Origin: a virus | IMG/VR virus record: IMGVR_UViG_3300045988_094320 | Reading direction: 5' to 3' (one strand) | DNA length: 54,795 nt | Shown: positions 26,244-38,329 of the stretch, piece after piece | Layout of the letters: every line of letters starts with the position of its first letter | Numbering within the stretch: the first letter of the stretch is position 1 | Translations under genes and position numbers: made by a program | Notes under the pieces: generated by a model | Told to the model about the DNA's origin: nothing | Databases searched by the model: none | The model's input: the letters and a program-made list of their open reading frames with translations, nothing else

Positions 26244-26953
26244 GTGTAAAACCAATATTATTCAACACAGAAATGGTTCGGGCTATTCTGGGCGGACGGA
26301 AGAGTTGTACAAGGCGAATTTGCAAAGATGCCAATGAGTGTACTGTGCCGGATATGGATTTTTACAACGCTGACAAGAGAACTTATGCAGTACATAACTT
26401 TGCAGATAAGAAACATACGGAGCAGTTAAGCATAGCAGAAAGAACTTGCCCTATCTGTCCGGGAGATATCCTGTACGTTCGGGAAACATGGGAGCGTTTT
26501 GAATGTTGGAACTGTGATGGAGACGAAAGAGGGAATTGCCCCAAAGAACCAAAGAAAAGCGTTTTGGATAAAACATTGGGTTGCTATATGTATCGAGCAA
26601 CAGATGAAATAAGTGGAGACGCAAAGTGGCATCCATCTATTCATATGCCGAAAGAAGCCGCACGTATTTGGCTTAAAGTTACGGATGTGAGGGTGGAACG
26701 GCTGCATGACATCACATATAATGGAGCACTCCGAGAGGGTTCAGAAGGTATAAGATGCGATCATGTAGCACTCGGGGTGCATGGATGTACAGATTGCATG
26801 AATACTGGATGGATTGAACCGCCACAGGTCGAATTTATGCAGATATGGGACAGCACCATCAAGAAGCCTGACCTTGACCAGTACGGATGGGATGCAAATC
26901 CGTGGGTGTGGGTTATCGAATTTGAGCGATGTGATAAGCCGGAAGGAGTGTGA
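26240..26953 (+). CDS. ASCH-like (PUA-fold) protein
   Basis: N-terminus KPILFNTEMVRAILGGRKSCTRRI, followed by ILYVRETW and HMPKEAARIWLKVTDVRVERL. Confidence 0.55.
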   Translation: MSVKPILFNTEMVRAILGGRKSCTRRICKDANECTVPDMDFYNADKRTYAVHNFADKKHTEQLSIAERTCPICPGDILYVRETWERFECWNCDGDERGNCPKEPKKSVLDKTLGCYMYRATDEISGDAKWHPSIHMPKEAARIWLKVTDVRVERLHDITYNGALREGSEGIRCDHVALGVHGCTDCMNTGWIEPPQVEFMQIWDSTIKKPDLDQYGWDANPWVWVIEFERCDKPEGV

Positions 26954-26957
26954 ATTT

Positions 26958-27305
26958 ATGGAAGATAACAAAAATGAAATGTCAATAACAGAAGCTATTG
27001 AAAGGTGCGACATTATGCTAAACGCTATCAGCATCAATGGCGCAGAGAAAGGTTTTGCAAATTATGATAATGGATTTCCAGATTGTGTAGTAATGAAATC
27101 CCTTATTAGAAGATGCAAATGGGCTTTGAAAAGGCAGATACCGAAGAGGGCATATCATATATCTCCTGTAGATGATAATGATAATGCGAATGTGGAGTGC
27201 CCAGAGTGCCATGCCACAACAGATTATGCAGTCAATGTAATTAAAAGAGGGCATTGTTGGAAGTGTGGGCAGTTATTGGATTGGAGTGATGAAAATGACG
27301 ATTGA
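26958..27305 (+). CDS. Hypothetical protein with a C-terminal zinc ribbon
   Basis: 115 aa from ATG 26958, with CPECH...CWKCG. Confidence 0.45.
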   Translation: MEDNKNEMSITEAIERCDIMLNAISINGAEKGFANYDNGFPDCVVMKSLIRRCKWALKRQIPKRAYHISPVDDNDNANVECPECHATTDYAVNVIKRGHCWKCGQLLDWSDENDD

Positions 27306-27618
27306 TGAAGCAATAGAACATTCAAAAGAAAAAGCTAAGGAACAGAGATATTATGCGAATTTTGAGCGAAACGGAATGATGTATCAGTCTTGCATTAAAT
27401 GTGCAGAGGAACACGAACAGCTTGCAGAATGGTTGGAAGAACTGAAAGCCATGAAAAACCTTGATAAAACCAATTTTATCGATGGCTATAATAGAGGAAT
27501 TGATGATTTCTTGAAAGAAGCAGATGCAACATTCCCTATGCAGAGTGACGGAACAGCGGTCTTGAGACGATTAGAAAAGATTGCTGATAGGTTAAAAGGC
27601 GGTGGTTCTGGTGAGTAA
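27295..27618 (+). CDS. Hypothetical protein
   Basis: 107 aa from ATG 27295 (RBS GGAGTGA). Confidence 0.45.
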   Translation: MTIDEAIEHSKEKAKEQRYYANFERNGMMYQSCIKCAEEHEQLAEWLEELKAMKNLDKTNFIDGYNRGIDDFLKEADATFPMQSDGTAVLRRLEKIADRLKGGGSGE

Positions 27619-28207
27619 ACCAAATTATAGGCAGATATATGCAAAGAAAGCAGCTAGAGAAAATCGAATTAAGTCTATTTGCCCTAACATTTCAAACACA
27701 AGCGGTATATATGCGTTTTATCGGTCAGATGAAGCAGGTATTCGCAGGAGTTACGTGGGGCAAGCAGTAAACCTTTTGGAAAGATGCGCTTCACACCTTG
27801 GAGAGTATGACCATATAGCATTAAGCCTAAAAAAACACGGGTTTTACAGTGAGGACAATCCTTGTGGTTGGAAGTTGGATTTTAAGACTTGCCCTAAATC
27901 TGAATTAGATGAAAAGGAAGTTGCTACGATCAAGCAATTTGCTGACAAGGGATTTCAGATGTACAACGTCACAGCCGGTAGCCAAGGGCAAGGGAAGTTG
28001 ATAACAGGTCAATACAAGCAACCTAAGACCTATACGCAGGGCATACAACAAGGATATAAAAAAGCTTCAAAAGAAGTTGCGCATTTATTTGAATTGCACC
28101 TTGATTATAAGACTAAATCTGAACCCCCTAACAAAAATCAAGAAAAAGCATTGAATAAATTTTTGGAGTTTTTAAATTATTGCAAAGGAGATTCTGGAAA
28201 TGAATGA
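27602..28207 (+). CDS. GIY-YIG nuclease (free-standing homing-endonuclease-like)
   Basis: SGIYAFYRSDEAGIRRSYVGQAVNLLERCASH fits GIY-x10-YVG with downstream R and E residues. GTG start. Confidence 0.7.
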   Translation: MVLVSKPNYRQIYAKKAARENRIKSICPNISNTSGIYAFYRSDEAGIRRSYVGQAVNLLERCASHLGEYDHIALSLKKHGFYSEDNPCGWKLDFKTCPKSELDEKEVATIKQFADKGFQMYNVTAGSQGQGKLITGQYKQPKTYTQGIQQGYKKASKEVAHLFELHLDYKTKSEPPNKNQEKALNKFLEFLNYCKGDSGNE

Positions 28208-29144
28208 GATATGGAAAAGCGTTGTCGGATATGAAAATCTTTATGAGGTATCAAGTTTCGGTCGGGTCAGGAGCGTTGATAGGACAACTATTGGGAAAAC
28301 AGCTTTTAGTGATGATTCTTTGTATCATTTTAAAGGAAAAATATTGAAACAAGGAAATAGGAAAACTTCTGGAATGCCTTATAAGCAGGTTGTTCTTTAT
28401 AAAAACAAGGAACACAAGACTGTTGCCGTACACAGATTGGTTGCAGAGGCATTTATACCCAACCCTGATAATTTGCCTCAAGTAAATCATAAGGACGAAA
28501 ATCCAAGCAATAACAATGTTAGCAACCTTGAATGGTGCACATGTAAATACAATGTGAATTACGGAACTGCAACCGATAGGAGAGCACTAAAGACAAGAAA
28601 TAATGCATACGATCAAAAACCTGTTATATGCTTGAATACAAATATTGTCTATCGAAATAGTTGTGAGGCAGAGAGAAAAACAGGAATAAAGGCAAATACT
28701 ATTAGAGAGTGCTGCAAAGGTAATTACAGCAATGCCGGCGGGTTCAAATGGCAGTATGCCAACGAAGCCGATGTTACAATCAAAAGCGTGGGTGCTCAAG
28801 AAATGGCAATACTAGACACTATGTTTAAAATTGAAAAAGAAAAGGGGATTATTTCATATTTAAAAAATTCAGTCGTTGTATCGACAGCTGAAATTTCCAA
28901 CAGGCTAAATATTTCTGCTTATGAGGTTAGGAAATCAATTAGAAAACTTGTTGGATTAGGGCTTGCAGAGAAAAGCGCAATTGGCAAGAAGTATATAAAA
29001 CCAAGCGAAGTAAATGAATGCCAAGTTTCGGGGCATATTCCGCCAGAAATAGGATTTTCACTAACAAAAACAGGATTTAAGGTATCACAGAAACAGTATG
29101 AGAAGTTTATGGATTTATTGAAAGTGGGTGAAGATAATCAATAA
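28200..29144 (+). CDS. HNH homing endonuclease (NUMOD4 + HNH_3 + C-terminal HTH)
   Basis: IWKSVVGYENLYEVSSFGRVRS fits NUMOD4. HRLVAEAFIPNP..LPQVNHKDENPSNNNVSNLEW fits HNH_3. There is a winged-HTH-like tail. Confidence 0.85.
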   Translation: MNEIWKSVVGYENLYEVSSFGRVRSVDRTTIGKTAFSDDSLYHFKGKILKQGNRKTSGMPYKQVVLYKNKEHKTVAVHRLVAEAFIPNPDNLPQVNHKDENPSNNNVSNLEWCTCKYNVNYGTATDRRALKTRNNAYDQKPVICLNTNIVYRNSCEAERKTGIKANTIRECCKGNYSNAGGFKWQYANEADVTIKSVGAQEMAILDTMFKIEKEKGIISYLKNSVVVSTAEISNRLNISAYEVRKSIRKLVGLGLAEKSAIGKKYIKPSEVNECQVSGHIPPEIGFSLTKTGFKVSQKQYEKFMDLLKVGEDNQ

Positions 29145-29313
29145 AGACTATGACTGTCATTGCTGGAACGATTATCCGAACGAGAATCATAGATACTATG
29201 GATATTCAGATACACCGAAAAAGAGCGGCAAATGGAAATGTGTTGATTGCTACGAATATGTGGGCAAATCCAAATTCGGTGCAACGCATTGTAGGAAGAA
29301 AGTAACTAACTAA
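29128..29313 (+). CDS. Small Cys/His-rich protein
   Basis: 61 aa track ORF. Confidence 0.4.
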   Translation: MKIINKDYDCHCWNDYPNENHRYYGYSDTPKKSGKWKCVDCYEYVGKSKFGATHCRKKVTN

Positions 29314-29332
29314 AAATCAAAGAAAGGAATAA

Positions 29333-29361
29333 GGTTGTCCGGACATAAAACCTAGGTTTCC
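29333..29361. promoter_or_regulatory. Bipartite double palindrome, copy A (TGTCCGGACA + AAACCTAGGTTT)
   Basis: 10-mer at 29336-29345 and perfect 12-mer palindrome at 29348-29359, about 16 nt upstream of ATG 29378. Confidence 0.7.
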
Positions 29362-29377
29362 TTTTGGTAGATTTAGA

Positions 29378-30232
29378 ATGTATAAAAAGAAGATTAAATG
29401 TGAGATATATCGTGATTCTATGCAGAATTACAAGAAATACGCAATACCGCCAGCACAGCTTATTATTGCAGATGTTCCTTACAATGTAGGAACTAACTTC
29501 TATGGAAGTAACCCTATGTGGTACAACGGCGGCGATAATAAAAACGGAGAGAGCAAACTTGCGAAAAAGGCGGCTTTCAATTCAGATTTTAATTTTAATC
29601 TGTATGAATACTTCCATTTTTGCTCAAAAATGTTGAAAAAAGAGGACGCAAAGCCTATCGCAAGGGGCAGAAGTAGTAACAGTCCTTGTATGATTGTATT
29701 TTGTTCATTTGAACAGTTATCAACATTGATTGTGGCGGCAAAGAAGCATGGATTTGTAAATTACATACCTTTAGTGTTTGTTAAGAATTACAGTCCACAG
29801 GTACTTAAAGCAAATATGCGTATCGTAGGGGCTACGGAATATGCGCTTGTGCTTTATCGAGATAAACTTCCGAAATTCAGAAATGGTTGTCAGACAGACG
29901 AGAACGGAAAGAATATCAGAGGGACGGGTCGCATGGTATTTAATTGGTTCACATGGGAGAAAGACGGTAAAGACATACCGAAGATTCACCCAGCGCAAAA
30001 GCCTGTTGCAGTTATTAAGAAGTTGATTGAGATTTTTACGGACGAGGGCGACGTGGTTATCGACCCTTGTTGTGGTAGCGGTAGCACACTTAGAGCCGCC
30101 GCAGAACTTGGCAGAAGTGCTTACGGATTTGAAATTGACAGGAACTTTTACGAGCGAGCAAAGAATGAAATGCTTTTATTTGATAGAGATCAGCAAATGT
30201 CTATATTTGACTTAGAGATTGATAAGGAGTGA
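29378..30232 (+). CDS. Orphan DNA methyltransferase (N6A/N4C, beta class)
   Basis: Motif IV ADVPYNVG precedes HPAQKP and motif I VIDPCCGSGST. No adjacent restriction gene. Confidence 0.85.
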   Translation: MYKKKIKCEIYRDSMQNYKKYAIPPAQLIIADVPYNVGTNFYGSNPMWYNGGDNKNGESKLAKKAAFNSDFNFNLYEYFHFCSKMLKKEDAKPIARGRSSNSPCMIVFCSFEQLSTLIVAAKKHGFVNYIPLVFVKNYSPQVLKANMRIVGATEYALVLYRDKLPKFRNGCQTDENGKNIRGTGRMVFNWFTWEKDGKDIPKIHPAQKPVAVIKKLIEIFTDEGDVVIDPCCGSGSTLRAAAELGRSAYGFEIDRNFYERAKNEMLLFDRDQQMSIFDLEIDKE

Positions 30233-30918
30233 GAAAAGTGGCAGAAAGACGTATGTTTACAAAAAGGATAACTGAAAGTGACTCTTTTTTAGATATGCCC
30301 AGTAGTACGCAAATGTTGTATTTTCATTTTTCTATGAATGCGGATGATGATGGATTTGTGAATAACCCAAAGAAAATACAAAAAATGTGCGGTGCTTCTG
30401 ATGATGATTTTAAATTGCTGATTGCAAAATCATTTATCATACTATTCGACAGCGGAATAATCGTAATAAAGCATTGGAAAATGCACAATTACATTCAGGC
30501 AGACAGGTACAGACCTACAGATTATGTAGAAGAGAAATCTATGCTTGGAATCAAGTCAAACAAGGCTTATACGTTGGATGTATCCAAAACGGATACAGAA
30601 TGTATACAGAATGGATACGTAGGTAAGGTAAGTATAGATAAGGATAGTATAGATAAGGATAGTATAGGGGAGAGTGTGAGAGTGGAAAAAGCTAAACGCT
30701 TTTATCCGCCCACTCTTGATGAAGTTAAACAGTATTGCGAAGAGCGGAAGAATAATATTGATCCGATGGCATTTATTGATTTCTATTCGAGCAAAGGTTG
30801 GATGATTGGGAAAAATAGAATGAAAGATTGGAAGGCGGCTGTTAGGACTTGGGAGCGAAAAAGAAAAGAACAATCCCGGGCAGAAAGCAGCGTATATGAC
30901 GAATGGAGGGATGCCTAA
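30229..30918 (+). CDS. Replisome organizer (phage replication initiator)
   Basis: N-terminus RRMFTKRITESDSFLDMPSSTQMLYFHFSMNADDDGFV fits Phage_rep_org_N. The C-terminus is DnaD-like (FIDFYSSKGWMIGKNRMKDWKAAVRTWE). Confidence 0.75.
   Translation: MRKVAERRMFTKRITESDSFLDMPSSTQMLYFHFSMNADDDGFVNNPKKIQKMCGASDDDFKLLIAKSFIILFDSGIIVIKHWKMHNYIQADRYRPTDYVEEKSMLGIKSNKAYTLDVSKTDTECIQNGYVGKVSIDKDSIDKDSIGESVRVEKAKRFYPPTLDEVKQYCEERKNNIDPMAFIDFYSSKGWMIGKNRMKDWKAAVRTWERKRKEQSRAESSVYDEWRDA
30631..30670. repeat. 15-bp iterons (2.6 copies) inside the replisome organizer gene; candidate ori
   Basis: agtatagataaggat x2, then agtatagggg; they encode SIDKDSIDKDSIG. Confidence 0.55.
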
Positions 30919-31544
30919 TGACAAGAGAGGAAACGATAGAGCTTCTAATGATGATACAAGCAGCGTTCCCAAATTACAAGCCGCAGGATAAAACGGTAGC
31001 TGTCAATACTTGGTTTCTGATGCTTGCAGATTATCCGTATCGGCAAGTGCAGATGGCGCTTAAAGCCTATATTGCGACGGATACAAGTGGATTCGCACCG
31101 AGCATCGGGCAGATTATTGATAAGATACAAATAATAGCCGATCCTGCGGAACTGAACGAAATGGAAGCATGGTCGCTTGTCGGCAAGGCTTTACGCAATG
31201 GAAATTACAAGCCGAGAGAAGAATTTGAGAAATTGCCCGATCTTGTGAAAGAAGCGGTAGGAAGCCCGGAAAACATACATAACTGGGCGCAGTCTGACAT
31301 AAAGAGCATTGAGAGCGTGATCCAGTCCAATTTTATCAAGAGCTATCGGCTTGTTGTGAACAGGCAAAAGGAAATGCAGAAATTGCCAAAAGACATAAAA
31401 GCTGTGATTTCCAGCAGTAGGACCTGCATCGGCAAGGAAATTGAAACATCACAAAAGACTGCGTTGGAAGCAAAAGAAGAGCCGGCAGAAGAACGAAAAT
31501 GCATTCCTATGCCGGATCGTTTGAAAGAAAAACTGAAATTGTAG
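30918..31544 (+). CDS. G39P-like helicase loader/inhibitor
   Basis: From ATG 30918 (TAATG overlap): TREETIELLMMIQAAFPNYKPQDKTVAVNTWFLMLADYPYRQVQMALKAY..FAPSIGQII. Confidence 0.65.
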   Translation: MTREETIELLMMIQAAFPNYKPQDKTVAVNTWFLMLADYPYRQVQMALKAYIATDTSGFAPSIGQIIDKIQIIADPAELNEMEAWSLVGKALRNGNYKPREEFEKLPDLVKEAVGSPENIHNWAQSDIKSIESVIQSNFIKSYRLVVNRQKEMQKLPKDIKAVISSSRTCIGKEIETSQKTALEAKEEPAEERKCIPMPDRLKEKLKL

Positions 31545-31554
31545 GAGGTAAAGA

Positions 31555-31585
31555 GGTTTGTCCGGACAAATAAAGCTAGCTTTAC
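31555..31585. promoter_or_regulatory. Bipartite double palindrome, copy B (TGTCCGGACA + AAAGCTAGCTTT)
   Basis: 10-mer at 31559-31568 and perfect 12-mer palindrome at 31572-31583, about 12 nt upstream of ATG 31598. Confidence 0.7.
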
Positions 31586-31597
31586 TCACACAATTAT

Positions 31598-32221
31598 ATG
31601 TACGACAAAGAAAGATACGAAAGACTGAAAGCAGAGGGCATATGTGTATCATGTGGGAAACCAAATGATCGAGTCAATAGAATTTACTGCTCAAAATGTC
31701 AAAAAGAAAGAAGCGAAAAACTGACAGAAACAAGAAGATGGTATGCCAAAATGGGATATTGCCCGAGGTGCCAAAAAAACAAATTGTTTGGATCTGAAAA
31801 GGTATGCCCTGAGTGCACTGCTGAAAATACGAACAGGATCGAAAGAAAGAGAGAAATTAGCAGGGAAAAATACAATGAGTACATGAAAGATTACCATAAG
31901 AAATTACACAATCAGAGGAAAGTGGATGGTATTTGTACTCGCTGTGGAAAAGTAAGCGTAAAAGGAACAGGATATTATACCTGCATAAAATGCAGGGAAA
32001 AAGAAAGAAAAAATATATATCCGCGAGAATACGGCTGGGCGAGAGTTGCCGAGGGTAAATGCTTCTTTTGCGGAGAGCCAGTGAAGAAAGGCTATAAGGT
32101 ATGTGAAAAACACTGGAAGTCAAATTGTGAGAATGCGAAAAAGGCGGACAGAAGCTATCTGCAAAGAACGAACAAATTGTTTTTTAGGAAGAAAGGGAAA
32201 TGCGTAAATGAGACTAATTGA
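31598..32221 (+). CDS. Cys-rich protein with repeated CxxC...CxxC zinc-ribbon modules
   Basis: 207 aa with at least four modules (CVSCG..CSKC; CPRC..CPEC; CTRCG..CIKC; CFFCG..CEKH), each followed by basic helices. No SD upstream. Confidence 0.55.
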   Translation: MYDKERYERLKAEGICVSCGKPNDRVNRIYCSKCQKERSEKLTETRRWYAKMGYCPRCQKNKLFGSEKVCPECTAENTNRIERKREISREKYNEYMKDYHKKLHNQRKVDGICTRCGKVSVKGTGYYTCIKCREKERKNIYPREYGWARVAEGKCFFCGEPVKKGYKVCEKHWKSNCENAKKADRSYLQRTNKLFFRKKGKCVNETN

Positions 32222-32441
32222 TGCAGAAAAATTGATAGAAGAATTTTCGGGAACAGGTAATTTTGATGCTGTTGAAGTAAGAAGTAGAATAGCATATACT
32301 CCAACAGCATATGACTTAAATAAGGTTGTGGAGCAGCTGGAAGCAGAGAAAGGAACATACTTTGACGGATTGCCTTGCGAGGGTACGAAGATAACAGTTA
32401 ATGCAGCAATCGAAATCGTGAAATCAGGAGCAAAGCAGTAA
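32208..32441 (+). CDS. Hypothetical protein
   Basis: 77 aa track ORF. Confidence 0.4.
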   Translation: MRLIDAEKLIEEFSGTGNFDAVEVRSRIAYTPTAYDLNKVVEQLEAEKGTYFDGLPCEGTKITVNAAIEIVKSGAKQ

Positions 32442-32456
32442 AAAGGAGAATGGCTT

Positions 32457-32855
32457 ATGAGGTTATCAGAACTGACTAAGCCAGAGATTGATGCAATCGT
32501 CGGAAATGCTAATTTTACGGAAGAAGAATATCAAGTGTTCCAGTATTTATCTAAAGGTGTAACACTTGATGAAATGGTTTATAGGTTAAAGCTATCGAAA
32601 GCTACTATTTCAAGAATTGTATTCAAGGTCAAAATGAAAATAGAAAGGATTGATAAAATGAAGCAAAATATACCTGTATGGGAAAAAATCACAATGACAG
32701 TAGAAGAAGCTGCAGAATATAGCAGCATTGGCATAAACAAAATCAGAGAGCTTTCAAGCGATCCCAGATGTAATTTTGTTATCTATATAGGCAAAAAGCG
32801 GTTAATAAAGCGAAAAGAGTTTGAAAAGTTCATTGCTGATAATGTGGAGTTGTAG
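32457..32855 (+). CDS. Fusion of a sigma-70 region-4-like HTH and an excisionase-type HTH (Xis-like)
   Basis: N-terminus FTEEEYQVFQYLSKGVTLDEMVYRLKLSKATISRIVFKVKMKI. C-terminus MTVEEAAEYSSIGINKIRELSSD...KKRLIKRKEFEKFI. It lies immediately upstream of int. An internal ATG at 32658 has an AAAGGA RBS. Confidence 0.6.
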   Translation: MRLSELTKPEIDAIVGNANFTEEEYQVFQYLSKGVTLDEMVYRLKLSKATISRIVFKVKMKIERIDKMKQNIPVWEKITMTVEEAAEYSSIGINKIRELSSDPRCNFVIYIGKKRLIKRKEFEKFIADNVEL

Positions 32856-32861
32856 ACTTAT

Positions 32862-32903
32862 AAAGCCTTATGTGATATTATATGTATTTGCATAAGGCTT
32901 TTT
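32862..32903 (+). terminator. Terminator hairpin whose loop contains the int promoter
   Basis: AAAGCCTTATG (32862-72) pairs with CATAAGGCTTT (32891-901), followed by TT. The loop carries extended -10 TG-a-TATTAT (32873-32881). Confidence 0.6.
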
Positions 32904-32926
32904 CCATACAGAAAGGAGCGTAAAAG

Positions 32927-34057
32927 ATGGGAAAAGACCTAAGAGGTAAGGAAATAGGGCAGGGTTTGTCCCAAAGGAAAGATGGGTACTATGTCGCTAG
33001 GTATACTGACAGGTACGGAAAGCGCATACAAAAACTGTTCTTGAAAATGAGAGAAGCCCAAAAATGGCTTTCAGAAAATAAGTATGAGGAGCAACACTCA
33101 AATATAGACTTTCCATCGGACATGATTGTTGAATCGTGGTTCCAATACTGGATTGCAATAAAAGAGAAAACAGTAAGACCGAATACCGTCAGAAATTACA
33201 GAGAGCGTTATAACAGGAATATAAAGCCGATAATAGGGAATAAATTATTAAGAGATGTAAACAGTATTCATTGTCAGCAAATATTTAACAAAATGGATGA
33301 TGAAGGATACAGGAAATCGACAATATATCAGACAAGAATCGCATTATACAATATGCTGCAATATGCATTTGACAACGATGTAATAAGAAAAAATCCATGT
33401 ACGAGGTCTGTTATATCTGATATGGGAAAAGAATCCGCGAAGAAAGAAGCACTCACAATAGAAACACAGAAAAAATTCTTGGAGTATGCTTCCGGTATGT
33501 CTTATGAATATCAATATAGATTTATTCTACAGACTGGATTGAGAACCGGGGAGCTTGCAGGTTTAAAGTGGGAAGATATAGACTTTAAAGGCAGAACACT
33601 TACGGTCAGCAGAAGTTTGGAGTATAGACATTCAGCAGGTGAATGGAGAGAGGGGCAGCCGAAGAGTAAATCCGGGTACAGGACTATACCCCTGACAGAT
33701 GAAGCAATTTATATCCTAAATAAGCAAAAAGAGAAAAATGCGCATCTGAAATTTGTCGAAATGCAATGGAAAGACAGAATATTTTTGTGCAAAACCGGAG
33801 CACCTGTTAAGAACAGCACATATGACACGGCGTTATTTAAAATATGCGACAAGGCAAAAATTCCTAGATTCTCAATGCATGTATTGCGTCATACATTCGC
33901 TACGAGATGTATAGAAGCCGGAATGATGCCGAAAACTCTTCAAACGATTTTAGGACATTCAAATATCGGAATAACTATGAATCTTTACGTGCACACAACA
34001 GACGACCAGAAGAAAATAGAAATTGAAAAAGTGGCAAAAGCACTAAAAGTTGTGTAA
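32927..34057 (+). CDS. int: Tyrosine integrase
   Basis: 376 aa with ..GLRTGELAGLKWEDIDF.. and HVLRHTFATRCIEAGMMPKTLQTILGHSNIGITMNLYVH (R..HxxR..Y catalytic signature). Confidence 0.95.
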   Translation: MGKDLRGKEIGQGLSQRKDGYYVARYTDRYGKRIQKLFLKMREAQKWLSENKYEEQHSNIDFPSDMIVESWFQYWIAIKEKTVRPNTVRNYRERYNRNIKPIIGNKLLRDVNSIHCQQIFNKMDDEGYRKSTIYQTRIALYNMLQYAFDNDVIRKNPCTRSVISDMGKESAKKEALTIETQKKFLEYASGMSYEYQYRFILQTGLRTGELAGLKWEDIDFKGRTLTVSRSLEYRHSAGEWREGQPKSKSGYRTIPLTDEAIYILNKQKEKNAHLKFVEMQWKDRIFLCKTGAPVKNSTYDTALFKICDKAKIPRFSMHVLRHTFATRCIEAGMMPKTLQTILGHSNIGITMNLYVHTTDDQKKIEIEKVAKALKVV

Positions 34058-34318
34058 AATTGGTACATAATTGGTACATAAAAATAAAACAAAGACAAAG
34101 AAATGCGATAAAACAGGCATTTCTGGTAAGGAGAAAGTTGAAATGAAATTAGGCATCGTAGTTAATTGACGTTTTTTATATAAATTTACGTGGTTTAATA
34201 TATTGCTACAAATACCTATTTTATTGAGTTTTTTGAGTTTTTGTGAAATTGTATATTTTTATATATTTTCACGTATTTTTATAAAAATTGGTACATAATT
34301 GGTACATAACTGGTACAC
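34058..34318. other. attP-like region: five direct 11-bp arm-type repeats flanking an AT-rich core
   Basis: aattggtacat x2 (34058-34079), then aattggtacat x2 plus aactggtacac (34286-34318). About 205 bp of AT-rich DNA lies between, with the inverted GTGAAA/TTTCAC pair. Confidence 0.55.
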
Positions 34319-34337
34319 GGAAAAAGCCTTATGCAAA
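34319..34337. repeat. 19-nt perfect inverted copy of 32887..32905
   Basis: GGAAAAAGCCTTATGCAAA is the reverse complement of TTTGCATAAGGCTTTTTCC. Confidence 0.95.
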
Positions 34338-34353
34338 ATGAGAATAAATTGAT

Positions 34354-34381
34354 AAGAATGTGAGAACCACATTCTTTTTTT
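34354..34381 (+). terminator. Strong intrinsic terminator downstream of attP
   Basis: AAGAATGTG-agaac-CACATTCTT followed by TTTTT. Confidence 0.8.
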
Positions 34382-34416
34382 ATGCGCCAAAATATAGCCA
34401 TAAGGAGTTGATAGTT

Positions 34417-34578
34417 ATGTTTTCGGACACAGTTTTAGAAAAGATATTTGCAATGCCGGATATGCAGATGCTTGATCTTCAAACACAATCAAACATTGTG
34501 CACGGCATTGAGACAATACTGGAAAAAGAGGAAAAGAAGAATGCTGATGAATTTCAGTCAGATGGGAACGCCGAATAA
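34417..34578 (+). CDS. Small hypothetical protein
   Basis: 53 aa from ATG 34417 (RBS TAAGGAG). The track ORF start at 34360 lies inside the terminator. Confidence 0.35.
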   Translation: MFSDTVLEKIFAMPDMQMLDLQTQSNIVHGIETILEKEEKKNADEFQSDGNAE

Positions 34579-34649
34579 AGATGTATTTTTGACACAGGAT
34601 GAAACAAATATATTGGTCGAAGCTGAAAAAGCGGAAAGAGAGGAACATT

Positions 34650-35120
34650 ATGCAGCCTTACCCAAATCCAAATTACTACCAGAACTATATGCAGCCGCCG
34701 CAGCAGATTTATAGTCAGCCGGCAGTACAGCAGTACCAGCAACCTTCATATATGCAGCAGGCAGCGCAAAGAATAAACGGAAGAGTGGTGCAGTCCGCAG
34801 ATATGATTACCGCAAACGATGTCCCGATGGATGGATCGGTTGCGTTCTTTCCCACACAAGATCTGTCAGAGATATACGCAAAGAGTTGGGATGCGAATGG
34901 CAAAATCGTTACAAGGCTTTTTAAGCCTGTTTCAGATTCACACCCTTCCAATCCCACACAAGAAACAGAAAAATTGAAAATAGGGCTATCAGACGAAGCC
35001 ACAGAGGTATTCAACAAGCACTTTGATACACTGTTTTTCAAAATAGAAGAACTGGAAAAGAAAATTGACGAGAAATCTTTGACTAAGACTAATGCAAGAA
35101 CAAAAGTTAGTCAAGATTAG
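34650..35120 (+). CDS. Protein with a Q/P/Y-rich N-terminus and a conserved-looking beta domain
   Basis: 156 aa from ATG 34650 (RBS GAGAGGAA). The first 40 residues contain 13 Q, 7 P and 7 Y, followed by INGRVVQSADMITANDVPMDGSVAFFPTQDLSEIYAKSWDANGKIVTRLFKPV. Confidence 0.55.
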   Translation: MQPYPNPNYYQNYMQPPQQIYSQPAVQQYQQPSYMQQAAQRINGRVVQSADMITANDVPMDGSVAFFPTQDLSEIYAKSWDANGKIVTRLFKPVSDSHPSNPTQETEKLKIGLSDEATEVFNKHFDTLFFKIEELEKKIDEKSLTKTNARTKVSQD

Positions 35121-35154
35121 TCCAAGTTTAGTCTAAAAATAGGATGGTGGCTTT

Positions 35155-35385
35155 ATGATGAATCAAGGAATTATACAGGCAATAAATAAATTAAAGACAA
35201 TCAGGAACCCACAACAGGCAGCCATGCAGGCATTGCAGAATGCAGCAAGGCAAGGAAATCAAATGGCAAGCGGAATTTTGCAGAATATCCAGTCTGGAAA
35301 CATGGCAGGCGTAGAGCAGACACTTAATAATTTTATGGGTGAAAATGGAATCAGTATGAATGATATAAGTCAAATGTTTAGATAA
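35155..35385 (+). CDS. Small Q/N-rich helical protein
   Basis: 76 aa track ORF. Confidence 0.45.
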   Translation: MMNQGIIQAINKLKTIRNPQQAAMQALQNAARQGNQMASGILQNIQSGNMAGVEQTLNNFMGENGISMNDISQMFR

Positions 35386-35398
35386 ATAGTACATATTA

Positions 35399-35434
35399 GG
35401 GTTTTGTCCGGACAGAGTAAAAACCAAGGTTCCC
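35399..35434. promoter_or_regulatory. Bipartite double palindrome, copy C (TGTCCGGACA + AAACCAAGGTT)
   Basis: 10-mer at 35405-35414 and imperfect second palindrome at 35421-35431, 33 nt upstream of ATG 35468. Confidence 0.65.
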
Positions 35435-35467
35435 TATTTGTAAATAAACAAATGGAGGTAAACTAAT

Positions 35468-36238
35468 ATGTTTAGTAACGGAGTAAGCCTTGCTGACATT
35501 GCGGCAGTAACGGGCAACAACAGAGACAATGATGGTATGTGGGGCAATGGCGCATGGTGGATTGTCATTCTCTTAATTTTCGGGTGGGGAGGCTTCGGCA
35601 ATAATGGCTGGGGCGGTAACGGTGCCGGAAATGGTTATACAGATGCGGCAATTCAGAGAGGTTTTGACAATCAGGCTGTTATCAGCAAACTTGACGGTAT
35701 CACAAACGGTCTGTGTGATGGATTCTATGCTGTAAACAACAGTATGCTTACAGGTTTCAACGGAATCAACACCAATATCATGCAGACAGGCTATGGCATC
35801 CAGCAGGCAATCAACGCTGACACAATCGCGAATATGCAGAACACAAATGCATTGCAGGCGCAGCTTGCAAACTGTTGCTGCGAAACTCGTGAAGCTATTC
35901 AGGGTGTAAACTACAACATGGCAACCAACACTTGCGCATTACAGAACACCATGAACAGCAACACAAGAGATATCATCGACAGCCAGCAGGCAGGAACGAG
36001 AGCGATTCTCGACTATCTGTGTCAGGATAAGATCGCAACATTACAGGCTGAGAACAGCGATCTCAGACAAGCTGCATCACAGGATAGACAGAATGCACTT
36101 CTGACTACTGCAATGACAGCGCAGACACAGCAGATCATCAATTCTGTAAACCCACCGGCAATCCCAGCATATGTTGTTCCTAACCCAAACACATATGTGC
36201 CATACGGATGCGGATGCAATCAGAGTTGCGGATGCTAA
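35468..36238 (+). CDS. Membrane-anchored N/Q/G/W-rich protein with a Cys-rich C-terminus
   Basis: 256 aa with RBS GGAGGT. A TM segment (WWIVILLIFGW) is flanked by GNG/WGG repeats. There is a long N/Q/T/A-rich region with a CCC motif, and the protein ends YGCGCNQSCGC. Confidence 0.6.
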   Translation: MFSNGVSLADIAAVTGNNRDNDGMWGNGAWWIVILLIFGWGGFGNNGWGGNGAGNGYTDAAIQRGFDNQAVISKLDGITNGLCDGFYAVNNSMLTGFNGINTNIMQTGYGIQQAINADTIANMQNTNALQAQLANCCCETREAIQGVNYNMATNTCALQNTMNSNTRDIIDSQQAGTRAILDYLCQDKIATLQAENSDLRQAASQDRQNALLTTAMTAQTQQIINSVNPPAIPAYVVPNPNTYVPYGCGCNQSCGC

Positions 36239-36354
36239 TTACAACAGAATAATTGAGTATCTTAATTAAGTTTAACTCGTTTTCAACAGGTTAAAAATGG
36301 TTTTAACGAATTAAAACATGATTATGTCTGCAAAAGCAGTATTACTTGTAAACC

Positions 36355-36390
36355 AAGGGGCAGACTGAAATATGTTTGCCCTTATTTTTT
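36355..36390 (+). terminator. Intrinsic terminator
   Basis: AAGGGGCA-loop-TGCCCTT followed by ATTTTTT. Confidence 0.6.
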
Positions 36391-36409
36391 GAAAGAGAGG
36401 TAAATAAAT

Positions 36410-36832
36410 ATGGCAGAATTTACAGGAATTGCATTACAAACAGTTGCCGCAGGAGAAGATGTTGCTTTTACAGAAACACCAGTATGTGGTAGCAAGTGCA
36501 TTGTTCATAGACAGGGAAGCGGTATTGTCAAGTTAAGAGGTATTACAAACCAGTGTAGAGCAAGATTTCTTGTATCGTTTAGTGGAAATATTCAGATACC
36601 AACAGGCGGTACGGTTGGAGCTATCTCACTTGCACTTGCGGTAGATGGCGAGCCTTTGCAATCAACACGAATGATCGTAACACCGGCGGCAGTAGAAAAT
36701 TTCTTTAACGTATCAGCACAGGCATACGTTGATGTACCTTGTGGTTGTTGCAGTACAGTATCTGTGCAGAACACATCTACACAGACTATTGAGGTTCAGA
36801 ACAGTAATTTGATTGCGATAAGGGAGGCTTAA
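36410..36832 (+). CDS. Small beta-rich protein resembling the BclA C-terminal / C1q-TNF-like domain
   Basis: 140 aa. The pattern ..QTVAAGEDVAF..GSGIVKL..FLVSFSGN...GAISLALAVDGEPL....VSAQAYVDVP..STVSVQN...IEVQNSNLIAIRE matches my memory of exosporium BclA-C-type domains. No collagen repeat. Confidence 0.5.
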   Translation: MAEFTGIALQTVAAGEDVAFTETPVCGSKCIVHRQGSGIVKLRGITNQCRARFLVSFSGNIQIPTGGTVGAISLALAVDGEPLQSTRMIVTPAAVENFFNVSAQAYVDVPCGCCSTVSVQNTSTQTIEVQNSNLIAIREA

Positions 36833-36836
36833 TATT

Positions 36837-37466
36837 ATGCACAAATGGGCTAAACAGATAATGGAATGCGTCAAGGCTAAGGTTGACGGAATTGGAATTG
36901 ACAATTTTGAAGGGCAAAATCTTGACGATTTAAAGGATTTTACAGAAATAGCGAAGAACATAGCTTGTTTTGACAAGGATTACAGAATCGTTGAAGCTAT
37001 GGAAAAGTCAGAAGATAATGAGGATATTATGCGTATGCTCGAACAGTACGAAGATTATCCGGAACGCAGATTTTACGACCATTACAGATATGCCGATGGC
37101 AGATTTGCACCAAAAGGTCGCGGAACATACCGCAGAGGTTATGAAGAGCCGCCGTACTGGCACATGACACCAGAGCGTTATCACGACATGGAATACAGCC
37201 GTGATATGGATAGGGGAAATGGTCGTATGTACTATACGGAGCCTACGCACACAGAAAGCCGGTATGAAAGCGCAAAGAGGGCTTACACAGAATCAAAGGA
37301 ACTGCACAAAGGAAATGAGCCGCAGGACAAAGAAGCAAAAATGCGCGAACTGGAAAAGTACATGAAAGAAATGTCAGATGATCTGCTGAATCTGATGAAA
37401 GGAATGTCACAGGAAGAAATGAATATGGCAAAGTCCAAATTATCAGTCCTTGTCAGCAAAATGTAA
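36837..37466 (+). CDS. Tyr/Arg/Glu-rich protein, unknown function
   Basis: 209 aa with a central low-complexity region RRFYDHYRYADGRFAPKGRGTYRRGYEEPPYWHMTPERYHDMEYSRDMDRGNGRMYY. Confidence 0.55.
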   Translation: MHKWAKQIMECVKAKVDGIGIDNFEGQNLDDLKDFTEIAKNIACFDKDYRIVEAMEKSEDNEDIMRMLEQYEDYPERRFYDHYRYADGRFAPKGRGTYRRGYEEPPYWHMTPERYHDMEYSRDMDRGNGRMYYTEPTHTESRYESAKRAYTESKELHKGNEPQDKEAKMRELEKYMKEMSDDLLNLMKGMSQEEMNMAKSKLSVLVSKM

Positions 37467-37470
37467 AAAC

Positions 37471-37503
37471 AAAGGCTATGGGTGCAATGCTCATAGCCTT
37501 TTT
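37471..37503 (+). terminator. Intrinsic terminator
   Basis: AAAGGCTATG-11 nt-CATAGCCTTT followed by TT. The RBS AGGAG of the next gene follows directly. Confidence 0.75.
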
Positions 37504-37516
37504 AGGAGTTGATTAT

Positions 37517-37843
37517 ATGATATTTACAGTAAATGGAAATAACTGGATACTGCAATATGTAAGACCTAGCAGCGAAGAACTGCGCAGGTCAGACGGCGTA
37601 TACACTCTCGGCGTTACCGACAATACAACCAAAACGGTAACGATTGCGGATAACCTGTCAGATCGAATGACAGACAAGGTACTATGCCATGAGTTGACGC
37701 ACGTTTACAGCTTCGAGAATGGCTGCCACATGGATATGCACACAGAAGAGATAGTTGCGGATTTTCTATCTCTGTATGGTCGAGATATCGTGTACATGGC
37801 TGATGATCTGATGAAGATTTTCCCAAGAAAAGTTGCGTACTAA
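37517..37843 (+). CDS. ImmA/IrrE-like or SprT-like zinc metalloprotease (HExxH)
   Basis: 108 aa from ATG 37517, with ..TVTIADNLSDRMTDKVLCHELTHV.. Confidence 0.55.
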   Translation: MIFTVNGNNWILQYVRPSSEELRRSDGVYTLGVTDNTTKTVTIADNLSDRMTDKVLCHELTHVYSFENGCHMDMHTEEIVADFLSLYGRDIVYMADDLMKIFPRKVAY

Positions 37844-38092
37844 TTAGATTTATGCAAGCTGGAAAACTGGATTTTGAAAATCTTGATAAAAACACTAAAA
37901 AGATCTGCTTTCAAAAAATTTTTCACGAAAAAAATTTCAAATCGGGGAGAATTTGAACCCCCCCCGGTACCATTTTACAGGCTCAAAAACCAAAACGGCG
38001 TTTTTGACGAATTTTACAAAATTTTCGTGAAATTTGGGTTGGAAAATTGAAAATGATTTATAGTGCTTTCGGTTCGTAGATGATACTGGGCC

Positions 38093-38263
38093 TGTCCGGG
38101 CGCGTGCTGATCTTTTCGCTGATCTTTTACGGATCGCCGGCATATTAAACAAATGCCATATATACCGCTGTACCTGTTTGATTGTTCTGATCTTTCGCCA
38201 TGCTCCGGCATATGGAATCTGGGCGCACCTGTCCGGGTGTCCTTCTTGCTGATCTTGTCCGGG
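38093..38263. repeat. Cluster of short repeats: CTGATCTT x4, TGTCCGGG x3, CCGGCATAT x2
   Basis: CTGATCTT at 38107, 38119, 38187 and 38249. TGTCCGGG at 38093, 38230 and 38256. CCGGCATAT at 38137 and 38205. There are five GATC sites within about 150 bp. Confidence 0.85.
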
Positions 38264-38301
38264 CGTGGTTGCAGAATTTCAGAGTGCACAAATTAAAGGC
38301 T

Positions 38302-38329
38302 ATAAGATGCGAATATTTGCACCTGTGAA
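38302..38329 (-). promoter_or_regulatory. Minus-strand promoter P2 (diverged duplicate of P1)
   Basis: Read on the minus strand: TTCACA, 16-nt spacer, TCTTAT. Confidence 0.4.

Follow-up and report, generated by a model that had tools for sequence, protein, structure and literature searches.

An undescribed twin-palindrome intergenic element in human-gut temperate phages

In Cluster K mycobacteriophages, the inverted repeats known as ESAS have been interpreted as operator-like (PMC3203893). At the RNA level, possible parallels to the locus reported here are the STAB-SD elements, in which 30S subunits bind to a Shine-Dalgarno (SD)-like sequence, and the Com protein of phage Mu, which acts on mom mRNA. 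The twin-palindrome element described below is intergenic, occurs in human-gut temperate phages, and is undescribed; Rfam has no family for it.

The window, i.e., the whole stretch of 54,795 nucleotides that was analysed, is a complete circular phage genome (54.7 kb). The 10-mer TGTCCGGACA was found in it exactly three times (Table 1), whereas a genome of this length should contain about 0.05 exact copies. With one mismatch allowed, four matches were obtained versus 0.59 expected, and none of 100 shuffles reached four. Each copy is intergenic, lies on the coding strand and is followed by a second palindrome (n=3). A covariance model run over the whole window returned three strong matches (48-62 bits), all on the coding strand, with the next best at 14 bits. 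The three copies read from the sequence in the initial annotation were all recovered at their positions, the 10-mer was invariant as claimed, and the distances of 16, 12 and 33 nt from motif to ATG were correct. The second element is indeed a perfect 12-bp palindrome in copies A and B (AAACCTAGGTTT, 29348-29359, and AAAGCTAGCTTT, 31572-31583), although the palindromes of copy B are really two abutting 14-mers, and the string printed for this copy, at 32 letters, is longer by one A than its 31 positions allow. The exchange of C-G for G-C at positions 4 and 9 is real, and covariation of this pair was seen across the family.

Other parts of the initial annotation required correction. Half-sites TGTCCGGG are present at 38093, 38230 and 38256 as listed, but also at 7441 and 26456, and the three near 38 kb are part of a different repeat, CCTGTCCGGGYG...GCTGATCTT. 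The version lacking the 10-mer, GGTTAAAACCTAG at 43741, exists but was not recognised as an element by the covariance model; it adjoins a tRNA-like match. The presumed avoidance of palindromes is not notable in this genome for CCGG (observed/expected 0.82) and only mild for CTAG (0.58). A sigma-70 promoter was rejected, with no promoter-like hexamers at the sites, and so was an intrinsic terminator, canonical terminators being located elsewhere (34354 and 36356); both results, together with those of the covariance model, agree with the earlier statement that the motif is neither.

The motif first noticed forms only the core of a modular inter-cistron element about 50 nt long, which is always on the sense strand, with the stop codon of the upstream gene 0-14 nt ahead of it. 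Its purine-rich 5' part resembles a ribosome-binding site (RBS), with AGGAGG or AAAGGAA, 7-9 nt, and TTG. The same TTG opens mini-hairpin 1 (TTG-NNN/NNN-CAA), which is separated by a linker of 0-5 nt from mini-hairpin 2 (AAA-NN-nn-NN-TTT). The pyrimidine-rich, anti-SD-like 3' arm (ACTCC, TTCCTTT or CCCTA) pairs with the purine arm to give helix P1. Copy A fills the gap between TAA 29311-29313 and ATG 29378. In copy B the TTG is at 31558, 9 nt past the SD-like AGGAGG; a reading frame initiated at TTG was not conserved in relatives.

Table 1. Coordinates of the element copies, their parts and the adjoining features in the window.
Feature	Position	Strand	Evidence or remark
10-mer TGTCCGGACA	starts 29336, 31559, 35405	+	exact-match search, no fourth exact copy
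Copy A, whole element	29318..29369	+	covariance model 57.1 bits, E=1.9e-10
Copy A, SD-like purine 5' arm of P1, GAAAGGAA	29322..29329	+	paired with 29358-29365 in MFE fold
Copy A, hairpin/palindrome 1, TGTCCGGACA	29336..29345	+	
Copy A, hairpin/palindrome 2, AAACCTAGGTTT	29348..29359	+	
Copy A, pyrimidine 3' arm of P1, TTCCTTTT	29358..29365	+	MFE fold; overlaps end of hairpin 2
N6/N4 DNA methyltransferase gene	29378..30232	+	after copy A; Pfam PF01555, 8e-27; no SD at ATG
Copy B, whole element	31541..31593	+	covariance model 61.8 bits, E=1.8e-11
Copy B, SD-like AGGAGG	31543..31548	+	overlaps TAG stop (31542-31544) of upstream helicase-loader gene
Copy B, hairpin/palindrome 1, TTTGTCCGGACAAA	31557..31570	+	perfect 14-mer
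Copy B, hairpin/palindrome 2, TAAAGCTAGCTTTA	31571..31584	+	perfect 14-mer; abuts palindrome 1
Copy B, 3' arm CTTTACTC	31580..31587	+	complementary to GAG(G)TAAAG 31545-31553, MFE folds
Uncharacterised basic protein gene, four CxxC...CxxC zinc ribbons	31598..32221	+	after copy B; no SD
Copy C, whole element with outer TACAT...TGTA stem	35386..35442	+	covariance model 48.1 bits, E=1.7e-08
Copy C, hairpin/palindrome 1	35405..35414	+	
Copy C, hairpin 2, AACC-AA-GGTT	35422..35431	+	
Copy C, outer helix TAGGG (35397-35401) / CCCTA (35432-35436)	35397..35436	+	cognate pairing best of 11
Membrane-anchored protein gene (phrog_16490)	35468..36238	+	after copy C; own SD GGAGG
Intrinsic terminator after membrane-anchored protein gene	36356-36383		

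Relatives were collected from related IMG/VR contigs with a structure-blind nhmmer profile, resulting in 365 copies, 126 of them distinct; one Lachnospiraceae MAG prophage also carries the element. In Dulem virus 39, the covariance model found three syntenic matches, all on the coding strand, and human-gut phages share the positional synteny with a phage of the lemur gut (terminase 80% identical). Hairpin 1 occurs as 8 alleles and hairpin 2 as at least 18, nearly all perfect palindromes within invariant flanks. The inner five pairs of hairpin 1 were Watson-Crick in all 126 distinct elements, across the 8 alleles. Among 40 distinct elements, pairing reached 95% in hairpin 1 and 87% in hairpin 2, compared with 33-49% in slid controls, and double changes were present at 12 of 17 pairs, a value reached by none of 500 shuffles. 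The pairing of the element is under constraint. Where pairs deviated from Watson-Crick, most read as G.U on the sense strand (three G.U alleles versus one A.C in hairpin 2), and the C-to-T and A-to-G variants of P1 in L006, L015, L234 and L405 can still pair.

The outer helix P1 covaries between classes, with the arm pairs AAAGGAA/TTCCTTT, GGAGxTAAAG/CTTTACTCC, TAGGG/CCCTA, AGAGG/CCTCT and GATAG..AAAGG/CTATCCTTT. Cognate flanks paired at -9.9 kcal/mol and non-cognate flanks at -6.1 kcal/mol; the cognate combination was best for every representative of classes A, C and D, and for copy A it was better than all 12 non-cognate flanks. Energy calculations gave no corresponding signal for the hairpins. 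The two hairpins on their own are thermodynamically marginal, RNAfold did not form either of them but P1 plus X1:X' instead, and in copies A and B the calculated folding energy was no better than that of shuffled sequence (z -0.7 and -1.0). Moreover, the symmetry runs through the hairpin centres and would imply loops of 0-2 nt, which are impossible for standard RNA hairpins.

This symmetry leaves room for a DNA-level role, in which the twin palindromes, with short inverted repeats on both sides, could form hairpins on a transiently single-stranded, G-rich lagging-strand template or small cruciforms. They could serve replication, as a priming or loader entry site beside helicase-loader genes, or form fragile, recombinogenic joints that bracket exchangeable modules. 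We consider this reading rather unlikely, and the strongest of the competitors. The lack of excess RNA stability is in its favour, as is the extension of the symmetry to the central dinucleotide (self-complementary in 40/40 elements for hairpin 1, as CG, AT or GC, and in 28/40 for hairpin 2) and to the pair beside the centre, which also covaries. According to the Hilbers/Blommers loop-folding rule, known two-base DNA loops are closed by C-G, and this pair closes the centre of hairpin 2 in 36 of the 40. Hairpin alleles are discrete, without intermediates, and reshuffled relative to the flanks, a pattern as compatible with templated symmetrisation or recombination of the DNA as with selection on RNA. 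In the window, the methyltransferase/DnaD-like/G39P-like genes lie between copies A and B, and in Dulem virus 39 the counterparts of these two copies enclose an SNF2-to-replicative-helicase block. Mosaic junctions coincide with the element: contigs agree in the 5' flank and the element, but past the 3' arm their sequences are unrelated. The recombination target named in the initial annotation thus gains weak support from the breakpoints, but no nuclease or recombinase was consistently linked with the element (the integrase is of the tyrosine type in the window and of the serine type in the MAG). Spontaneous extrusion of a cruciform requires longer arms than the 5-7 bp present here. Pairing exceptions favour G.T on the sense strand, though hairpins on that strand would fit as well. 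The DNA-level reading also leaves unexplained the strictly conserved, strand-specific RBS-like 5' arm, the constant 8-10 nt between 3' arm and ATG in class B, the SD-less downstream genes, and the fact that the element keeps strictly to the sense orientation across at least 15 gene contexts.

The gene after copy B has homologues (41-94% identity) that carry the element immediately 5' in 79 of 80 loci; a search for relatives of known function detected none for the four-zinc-ribbon protein. Such a site before a regulator-like gene suggests autoregulation, and four zinc ribbons would match four half-sites. Under a duplex-operator reading, essentially the first option of the initial annotation, one or two phage proteins, possibly this one, would bind TTG-N6-CAA and AAA-N6-TTT and repress or time downstream transcription. 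In agreement with this, the dyads are perfect, their outer triplets (TTG/CAA, AAA/TTT) and centre are conserved, and the ESAS repeats have been read likewise. We nevertheless regard it as improbable. The inner 4-6 bp vary among the alleles yet stay symmetric, for which there is no reason if the protein does not read them. Cores are exchangeable and differ within one genome (contig 3300045988_035850 combines TTGGTCGACCAA at site B with TGTGCGCACA at site C; two TGTCCGGACA and one TGTGCGCACA in Dulem virus 39), and the zinc-ribbon protein does not vary along with them (identity 0.94-0.95 within and between allele groups), which speaks against a single dimeric regulator that reads the sequence. 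The palindrome centres are spaced 13, 14 and 17 bp apart in the window, the sites lie inside a long operon without promoter-like hexamers, and neither the covarying outer helix nor the RBS-like arm would be needed.

The 5' 16-mer of copy B, AGGAGGTAAAGAGGTT, is found elsewhere as an ordinary RBS immediately 5' of the ATG of unrelated phage genes. The element might accordingly be a largely passive, small palindromic insertion between RBS and start codon, nano-MITE-like or produced by quasi-palindrome template switching, spread by recombination and kept symmetric by mutation (templated correction) instead of selection. Its flanking inverted repeats resemble terminal repeats, it occurs in many unrelated gene contexts, and its symmetry reaches the centre. 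Little probability is assigned to this origin. The 16-mer is invariant among relatives and the flanks are 100% conserved, at a flanking synonymous divergence of 0.12-0.25 (dS ~0.2); the synteny extends to the lemur-gut phage, and the zinc-ribbon gene is almost never without the element. The putative terminal repeats differ between classes, unlike those of a transposase-recognised element, and no target-site duplication or transposase was seen.

An SD-energy scan, which favours SD-bearing starts, placed nearly all genes at -6 kcal/mol or better and picked internal starts for the genes at 29378 and 31598. No SD is visible 5' of either ATG, as had been stated for these two genes. A strong SD-like sequence (AAAGGAA; tAGGAGG), missed in the initial annotation, is instead located at the 5' edge of the element, 48-49 nt before the ATG in classes A, B and D, the last seen only in relatives. 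Closure of the hairpin would still leave this arm some 12-14 nt away from the ATG, and a simple 'split RBS' therefore fails. The slots 3' of the element are occupied by DNA methyltransferases of several unrelated types and by the zinc-ribbon protein family; in relatives, the slot after copy A is taken by methyltransferases of unrelated types or by an HNH endonuclease.

About 80 relatives have, at the position of copy C, either the element or one perfect palindrome enclosed by the same TACAT...ATGTA stem, and distant phages carry the single palindrome only. Counterparts of its hairpin 2 were AACC-AC-GGTT, AACCGGTT and TGACCGGTTA, and those of its outer helix AGAGG/CCTCT in the Dulem homologue and TGGG/CCCA in the L142 type. 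As the gene after copy C has its own SD and distant phages have the single palindrome, one mechanism may not cover all copies.

The interpretation given in the initial annotation is partly supported. Its RNA double hairpin gating translation is the best-fitting direction, because the element is in sense orientation with an RBS-like 5' arm, the genes that follow lack an SD, the flanks covary and the exceptions are mostly of the G.U type; the hairpins themselves are marginal, with pairing that continues up to a centre of 0-2 nt. From the sequence comparisons, we tentatively favour a cis-acting mRNA element that governs translation or stability and is also a joint for module exchange. It would most likely act within the transcript of the long early/replication operon, where P1 and the two hairpins may form a junction or, alternatively, an extended hairpin P1+P2. 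This structure would lock the RBS-like arm and cover roughly -10 to -55 of the next cistron, which in classes A, B and D is without its own SD; the start codon of this cistron follows the 3' arm by 9-14 nt in class A and by 8-10 nt in class B. Translation of the downstream gene and/or the stability of its 5' end would then depend on opening or protecting the structure. Ribosomes terminating just 5' of the element might open it, or 30S binding at the SD-like arm, for which a likeness to STAB-SD elements is proposed. A trans factor may take part as well. First among the candidates is the four-zinc-ribbon protein, the gene for which nearly always follows the element; Com and mom mRNA would be the parallel. 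The element would double as a joint at which phages exchange downstream genes, since only about 25 flank bases are conserved.

The bipartite double palindrome described in the initial annotation is a solid observation, and much stronger than that first reading could see. An alignment of copies from many phages gave a five-part layout in which the motif is the core of a larger intergenic element. Part 1 is a purine-rich arm resembling a Shine-Dalgarno (SD) sequence; it reads AAAGGAA in class A, tAGGAGG-TAAAG in class B, TAGGG in class C and AAAGGAGG...GATAG in class D, which occurs in relatives only (classes A-D are element types defined by their flanks). Part 2 consists of GGTT(T) followed by hairpin 1, TTG-NNN|NNN-CAA, part 3 is a linker of 0-5 nt, and part 4 is hairpin 2, (T)AAA-NN-nn-NN-TTT(A). 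Part 5 is a pyrimidine-rich arm complementary to part 1 (TTCCTTT, CTTTACTCC, CCCTA and CTATCCTTT, in the same order of classes). The outer helix formed by the two arms, P1, was predicted by RNAfold in every class. Constancy is limited to the flanks, the junction bases and the outer triplets, all of which are conserved to 100%.

All three copies (A, B and C) were located in the window where they had been reported, with one letter corrected in the string of copy B. The 10-mer TGTCCGGACA occurs exactly three times. With up to one mismatch allowed, four matches were counted against 0.59 expected, and none of 100 shuffles reached four. The palindromes of copy B are two abutting perfect 14-mers. Palindromes of at least 10 bp are not generally enriched in the window (41 versus about 58 in shuffles), and adjacent double palindromes are confined to the motif sites. 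A covariance model detected three copies, and no more, in the window; Dulem virus 39 has three as well, in syntenic positions, and every one of these copies lies on the coding strand. The half-sites proposed near 38.1-38.3 kb and the fragment at 43741 do exist; they fall outside the element family, belong to other repeats and are not seen by the covariance model.

Coordinates of the element copies, adjacent genes and other features in the window
Feature	Position	Strand	Remarks
Copy A	29318..29369	+	upstream stop codon 8 nt before the arm
Methyltransferase gene	29378..30232	+	no SD visible
Copy B	31541..31593	+	upstream stop codon overlaps AGGAGG
Zinc-ribbon protein gene	31598..32221	+	no SD visible
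Copy C	35386..35442	+	upstream stop codon 4 nt before the outer stem
phrog_16490 membrane protein gene	35468..36238	+
AATTGGTACA(T/C)AA repeats	34045-34317		directly 3' of the tyrosine integrase gene, beside a terminator; probably arm-type integrase sites of attP
Canonical terminator	34354-34376
Canonical terminator	36356-36383
Divergent regulatory region with HTH genes	13725-14129 / 14266	- / +
Divergent regulatory region with HTH genes	39402-39776 / 39760	- / +	separate from the preceding region
Strong sigma-70-like promoter	near 38402-38430	-
Strong sigma-70-like promoter	near 39699-39727	+
Strong sigma-70-like promoter	near 39969-39997	+
Type II hammerhead ribozyme	39166-39235	-	Rfam RF02276, 63.2 bits (gathering score 37); flanked by two minus-strand genes in the putative lysogeny/regulatory region
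Gene-free region	38085-38270		three copies of a different repeat, CCTGTCCGGGYG then GCTGATCTT; sole GGCC of the genome (~38088); terminator-like hairpins; an origin or a non-coding RNA are possibilities
Suppressor tRNA, anticodon UUA	43228-43313	+	86 nt, reads the UAA stop codon; the genome reads well in the standard code
tRNA-Gln(UUG)	43535-43608
tRNA-like match	43672-43735		fourth match; borderline in Rfam, not called by ARAGORN
tRNA-Ser(GCU)	44035-44119
Ten tandem 27-nt units	16456-16822		inside the gene 16144-16998; encode a 9-residue protein repeat

Bases 1-99 of the window recur at 54697-54795, which shows it to be the whole of a circular phage genome, 54,696 bp in length. Its G+C content is about 39%, almost all genes lie on the plus strand, and most are preceded by a strong SD. 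Among annotated relatives the nearest is Dulem virus 39, which comes from lemur faeces (80% amino acid identity of the terminase); the others are uncultured human-gut phages in IMG/VR and one prophage in a Lachnospiraceae MAG, so the host is probably a member of the Lachnospiraceae. On the plus strand, an HNH endonuclease gene and a small ORF precede copy A, which is followed by genes for an N6/N4 DNA methyltransferase, a DnaD-like loader and a G39P-like helicase loader. Copy B is followed by the genes of the Cys-rich zinc-ribbon protein, a 77-aa protein, a Tn916-type excisionase and a tyrosine integrase. Between the integrase and copy C lie the attP-like repeat region with its terminator and two small genes, and the phrog_16490 membrane protein gene after copy C is again followed by a terminator. 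Intergenic gaps are very few within the operon of about 20 kb, and copies A and B occupy two of them. The layout, with its two separate divergent HTH regions, is unusual in that the integrase is placed at the end of the long rightward operon. GGCC occurs once in 54.7 kb (observed/expected 0.01), and several 6-bp palindromes are nearly absent (ATTAAT 0 versus 13.5 expected, TGATCA 0 versus 12.9, GAATTC 1 versus 16.5, AAGCTT 3 versus 20, CAATTG and CTGCAG 4 each versus about 16), which indicates strong restriction avoidance.

A motif scan of IMG/VR yielded 51 loci, and protein-anchored and flank-anchored retrieval, in which no palindrome was presupposed, added several hundred. A structure-blind nhmmer profile collected 365 copies, 126 of them distinct. 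Eight alleles of the hairpin 1 core were present (TGTCCGGACA, TGTGCGCACA, TGGTCGACCA, TGACCGGTCA, TGTCGCGACA, TGTCATGACA, TTCCCGGGAA and TGCGCGCA), and none of the 126 distinct elements departs from Watson-Crick pairing in the five inner pairs of this hairpin. At least 18 alleles exist for hairpin 2, with the arms AAACC/GGTTT, AAAGC/GCTTT, AAAAC/GTTTT, AAATC/GATTT and AAAGT/ACTTT; the exceptions, small in number, are a G.U pair in three alleles only and an A.C pair in one. Both sides had changed in 12 of the 17 pairs of a 40-sequence alignment, in which 88% of the cells were paired, compared with 74% after shuffling (the observed value was reached in 0 of 500 shuffles) and 33-49% when the partner column was slid. 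The helices are thus kept by compensatory changes, as is characteristic of structured cis-regulatory RNA, and the flanks covary too. Cognate 5' and 3' flanks pair at a mean of -9.9 kcal/mol versus -6.1 kcal/mol with flanks from other classes, and the cognate flank was the best pairing partner for every representative of classes A, C and D. In view of this family-wide covariation, the single compensatory base change noted initially is one instance of a pervasive pattern. A motif-pattern search of GTDB genomes for a host or prophage gave 86 matches, all of them chance-like (unrelated flanks, high-GC genomes).

The element always lies on the sense strand, with an upstream stop codon just before it. 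Its 5' arm is a textbook ribosome-binding site (RBS) with a TTG 7-9 nt downstream, and the 16-mer AGGAGGTAAAGAGGTT of this arm stands directly before the ATG of unrelated phage genes. The gene after the element lacks an SD in classes A, B and D, where 48-49 nt separate the SD-like arm from the ATG; in class B the ATG follows the 3' arm at a constant 8-10 nt. The reported absence of an SD upstream of the methyltransferase and zinc-ribbon genes was borne out, and an SD-favouring scan picked internal starts for both. A simple split RBS was rejected because a spacing of 12-14 nt is left over. A conserved leader peptide starting at the TTG was discarded since 1-nt indels shift the frame and the stop, the ORF ranging from MSGQ followed by a stop to 36 codons. 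Bypass as in gene 60, readthrough or frameshifting to join the flanking ORFs was likewise rejected: the frames are mismatched, the A-run before the ATG varies in length, and upstream and downstream genes assort independently.

The view that the motif is neither a terminator nor sigma-70-like was upheld. A scan of 26000-41000 for -35 and -10 hexamers 16-18 nt apart gave nothing at any of the three copies, and the best promoter-like match found by eye was TTGTCC-17-TTTACT (4/6 + 4/6) at copy B only. A scan for intrinsic terminators (G+C-rich stem, 3-8 nt loop, then a U-run) returned the two canonical terminators and none of the copies; there is no T-run 3' of copies B and C. Rfam 15 covariance models gave no match on the copies at the gathering threshold, nor at E-values up to 5 in 29000-36000. 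A MITE- or REP-like element was rejected, as the outer inverted repeats differ among classes A-D and the window showed neither a target-site duplication nor a transposase. Every hairpin core is a type II-like palindrome of 6 bp; the idea that the cores are restriction sites was dropped because TCCGGA (8 copies), CCTAGG (2) and GCTAGC (5) are neither confined to the element nor unusual in the window, and because the same hairpin alleles stand before unrelated methyltransferase types.

The reading tentatively favoured is a cis-acting mRNA element that controls translation and/or stability of the next, SD-less cistron, possibly with a zinc-ribbon effector. Most variants of P1 replace C by T on the pyrimidine side or A by G on the purine side, which keeps G.U pairing on the sense strand, and RNAfold predicts P1 and P2. 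The z-scores of copies A, B and C were -0.7, -1.0 and -2.7, copies A and B being no more stable than shuffled sequence. This missing excess of RNA stability speaks for a DNA-level hairpin or cruciform with a role in replication or recombination, a possible but less probable reading. It is further favoured by a symmetry that takes in the centre: the central dinucleotide of hairpin 1 was CG, AT or GC in 40 of 40 sequences, that of hairpin 2 was self-complementary in 28 of 40 (25% expected), and the pair beside the centre covaries as well. The loops left are 0-2 nt long and are not formed by standard RNA hairpins, which is why RNAfold ignores hairpins 1 and 2. The alleles are also discrete, without intermediates. 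Both lines of evidence could be reconciled if pairing were selected at the RNA or single-strand level while quasi-palindromes underwent fast templated symmetrisation in DNA.

The operator for a single dimeric regulator that had been suggested initially found no support, and a duplex operator in general is considered quite improbable. Such an operator should have one half-site sequence throughout a genome. Hairpin 1 is identical at the three sites of the window, but hairpin 2 differs there, and in relatives hairpin 1 also differs within one genome. The spacing of the two palindromes is variable, and the constancy is confined to the outer triplets, junction bases and flanks. Co-evolution of the alleles with a linked protein was rejected: identity of the zinc-ribbon protein next to the element is 94-95% whether sequences from one hairpin-allele group or from different groups are compared, and the divergence of the upstream helicase-loader gene is uncoupled from the allele. 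Hairpin alleles are common to backgrounds about 0.2 apart in synonymous divergence, yet different in close ones. A passive palindromic insertion is regarded as equally improbable, so that the mRNA element ranks before the DNA-level role, and both before these two.

Across contexts, the slot after class A is occupied by an HNH endonuclease or by DNA methyltransferases, which belong to several unrelated types. Classes B and D are followed by homologous proteins that are basic and carry four CxxC...CxxC zinc ribbons; now and then an SNF2 helicase or a methyltransferase takes their place. The element lies immediately upstream, on the same strand, at 79 of 80 IMG/VR loci with a zinc-ribbon homologue (41-94% identity), and also upstream of the homologue in the Lachnospiraceae prophage. 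The gene block always comprises the zinc-ribbon gene, a small HTH/Xis gene and an integrase, whatever the integrase type. Searches with the zinc-ribbon protein of Pfam, PHROGs, NCBIfam and PDB sequences, and of PDB and BFVD with AlphaFold and Foldseek, returned nothing informative: Pfam gave weak double-zinc-ribbon matches only, and the confident model (pLDDT 86) had no structural match and no named relative. The tight linkage of element and gene suggests, by analogy with Mu Com/mom, that the protein may autoregulate, and makes it the prime candidate for the trans factor of the element.

In class A, conservation extends over the upstream flank and the element, and the sequence past CCTTTTGG is unrelated between contigs; the class B element was found behind at least 8 different upstream sequences. 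On this sequence pattern, the element would also be a module junction. At the position of copy C, more distant phages (loci L158, L166 and L162 and about 60 similar ones) carry a single perfect palindrome some 50-70 nt upstream of the phrog_16490 homologue, namely CAATCTGGCCAGATTG, TCCCGGCCGGGA or ...AACCCGGGAC..., enclosed, as in copy C, by the TACAT...ATGTA outer stem. Placing perfect palindromes at this junction thus seems to be a broader practice, of which the twin-palindrome core would be one form.

No description of the element was found in Rfam or in the searchable literature, where the 10-mer retrieved unrelated eukaryotic and mycobacterial papers only, mostly on p53-type response elements. 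The nearest concepts are Mu com/mom, SAS/ESAS, PeSL and STAB-SD, and the element could be assigned to none of them. In phage Mu, a DNA-modification gene is translationally silenced by mRNA structure around its start, and this structure is remodelled when a small zinc-finger protein of the phage binds a hairpin immediately upstream of it. The SD-less DNA methyltransferase genes after a structured element and the tightly linked zinc-ribbon gene appear analogous. However, Com has about 62 aa and one zinc ribbon, whereas the protein in the window has 207 aa and four ribbons, with no Pfam Com match, no PDB sequence match and no structural match. In Mu the sequestered RBS is that of mom itself, whereas here the sequestered SD-like sequence lies about 49 nt upstream of the ATG. 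Split RBSs are known from T4 genes 38 and 25, in which a hairpin bridges a far-upstream SD and the start codon. The distant SD, the folded segment between and the phage setting are shared, but in the element the residual spacing is about 12-14 nt plus the helix width, compared with 5-9 nt, and the SD-like bases are inside a helix.

The start-associated and extended sequences (SAS/ESAS) of Cluster K mycobacteriophages (Pope et al. 2011, PMC3203893) are, like the element, short repeats restricted to the non-structural half of temperate siphophage genomes. They likewise stand in one orientation right before start codons, in unusually large intergenic gaps, with an AGGAG core and inverted repeats alongside and genes of different families downstream. 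The SAS, however, is a 13-mer, GGGATAGGAGCCC, 3-7 bp before the ATG and itself at the RBS position, and it is present in 11-19 copies (PMC3203893), whereas the element has its SD-like arm 48-49 nt from the ATG, leaves the RBS position empty and occurs three times per genome. The repeats of ESAS are 17-mers, imperfect and spaced by 4-13 bp, and they do not covary as RNA helices, in contrast to two perfect, strongly covarying mini-palindromes within an outer helix. The two are dissimilar in sequence and come from phages of hosts in different phyla.

Promoter-early stem-loop (PeSL) mobile regulatory cassettes of T4-type phages (Arbiol et al. 2010, PMC2839356; Comeau et al. 2014, PMC4122927) are also small conserved intergenic cassettes with a stem-loop, which flank variable genes at indel or mosaic breakpoints. 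Like PeSLs, the element would thus act as a point of genetic exchange, and as a putative module junction it is comparable to them. PeSLs, however, combine a terminator-like stem-loop with a sigma-70 early promoter and are numerous in hyperplastic regions of large lytic myoviruses, whereas the element, found as three syntenic copies in a temperate siphovirus-like genome, has neither promoter hexamers nor a U-tract. It shares the boundary behaviour of PeSLs and lacks their promoter.

STAB-SD or polypurine 5' mRNA stabilisers of Firmicutes (Agaisse & Lereclus 1996; for phage SP82, Hue, Cohen & Bechhofer 1995) are described in PMC7509114 as protecting downstream RNA by ribosome binding without translation; RNase III processing sites of SP82 (Panganiban & Whiteley 1983) are cited in PMC4838370. 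According to these secondary accounts, a perfect SD-like purine tract off the RBS distance is shared with STAB-SD, and a position in a Firmicutes phage early transcript beside conserved intercistronic hairpins with STAB-SD and the SP82 sites. By the same accounts STAB-SD genes have a normal RBS, which the gene after the element lacks, and the SD-like tract of the element is itself base-paired. This tract is present and conserved; its likeness to STAB-SD is one of description, and an effect on mRNA stability is a candidate only.

It is on balance unlikely that all steps hold of a wider proposal, in which the element and the zinc-ribbon protein would together make up a hitherto undescribed phage regulon that acts post-transcriptionally. 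In it, the protein would read the shape of the twin mini-hairpins together with the conserved junction bases, in mRNA or in equivalent single-stranded DNA, and thereby switch the clamp of SD and anti-SD arms. This would time its own gene, the exchangeable DNA-methyltransferase (anti-restriction) slot and the following excision/integration block, with the self-symmetrising palindromic cores able to drift freely as alleles.

Whatever the mechanism, the perfect, allelic, centre-inclusive palindromes pose an evolutionary puzzle of selection on structure versus templated symmetrisation. If the element functions in the way suggested, it would mark precise joints of cargo exchange, useful for annotation and as insertion sites in engineering, and would be another case of an RBS look-alike serving as a structural or regulatory part instead of an RBS. 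A large family of unnamed multi-zinc-ribbon phage proteins would gain a function. The element would then be a widespread, portable expression-control module of abundant human-gut temperate phages of the Lachnospiraceae type, with control over genes for evasion of host defence (DNA methyltransferases) and possibly, through the block ending in the integrase, over lysogeny.
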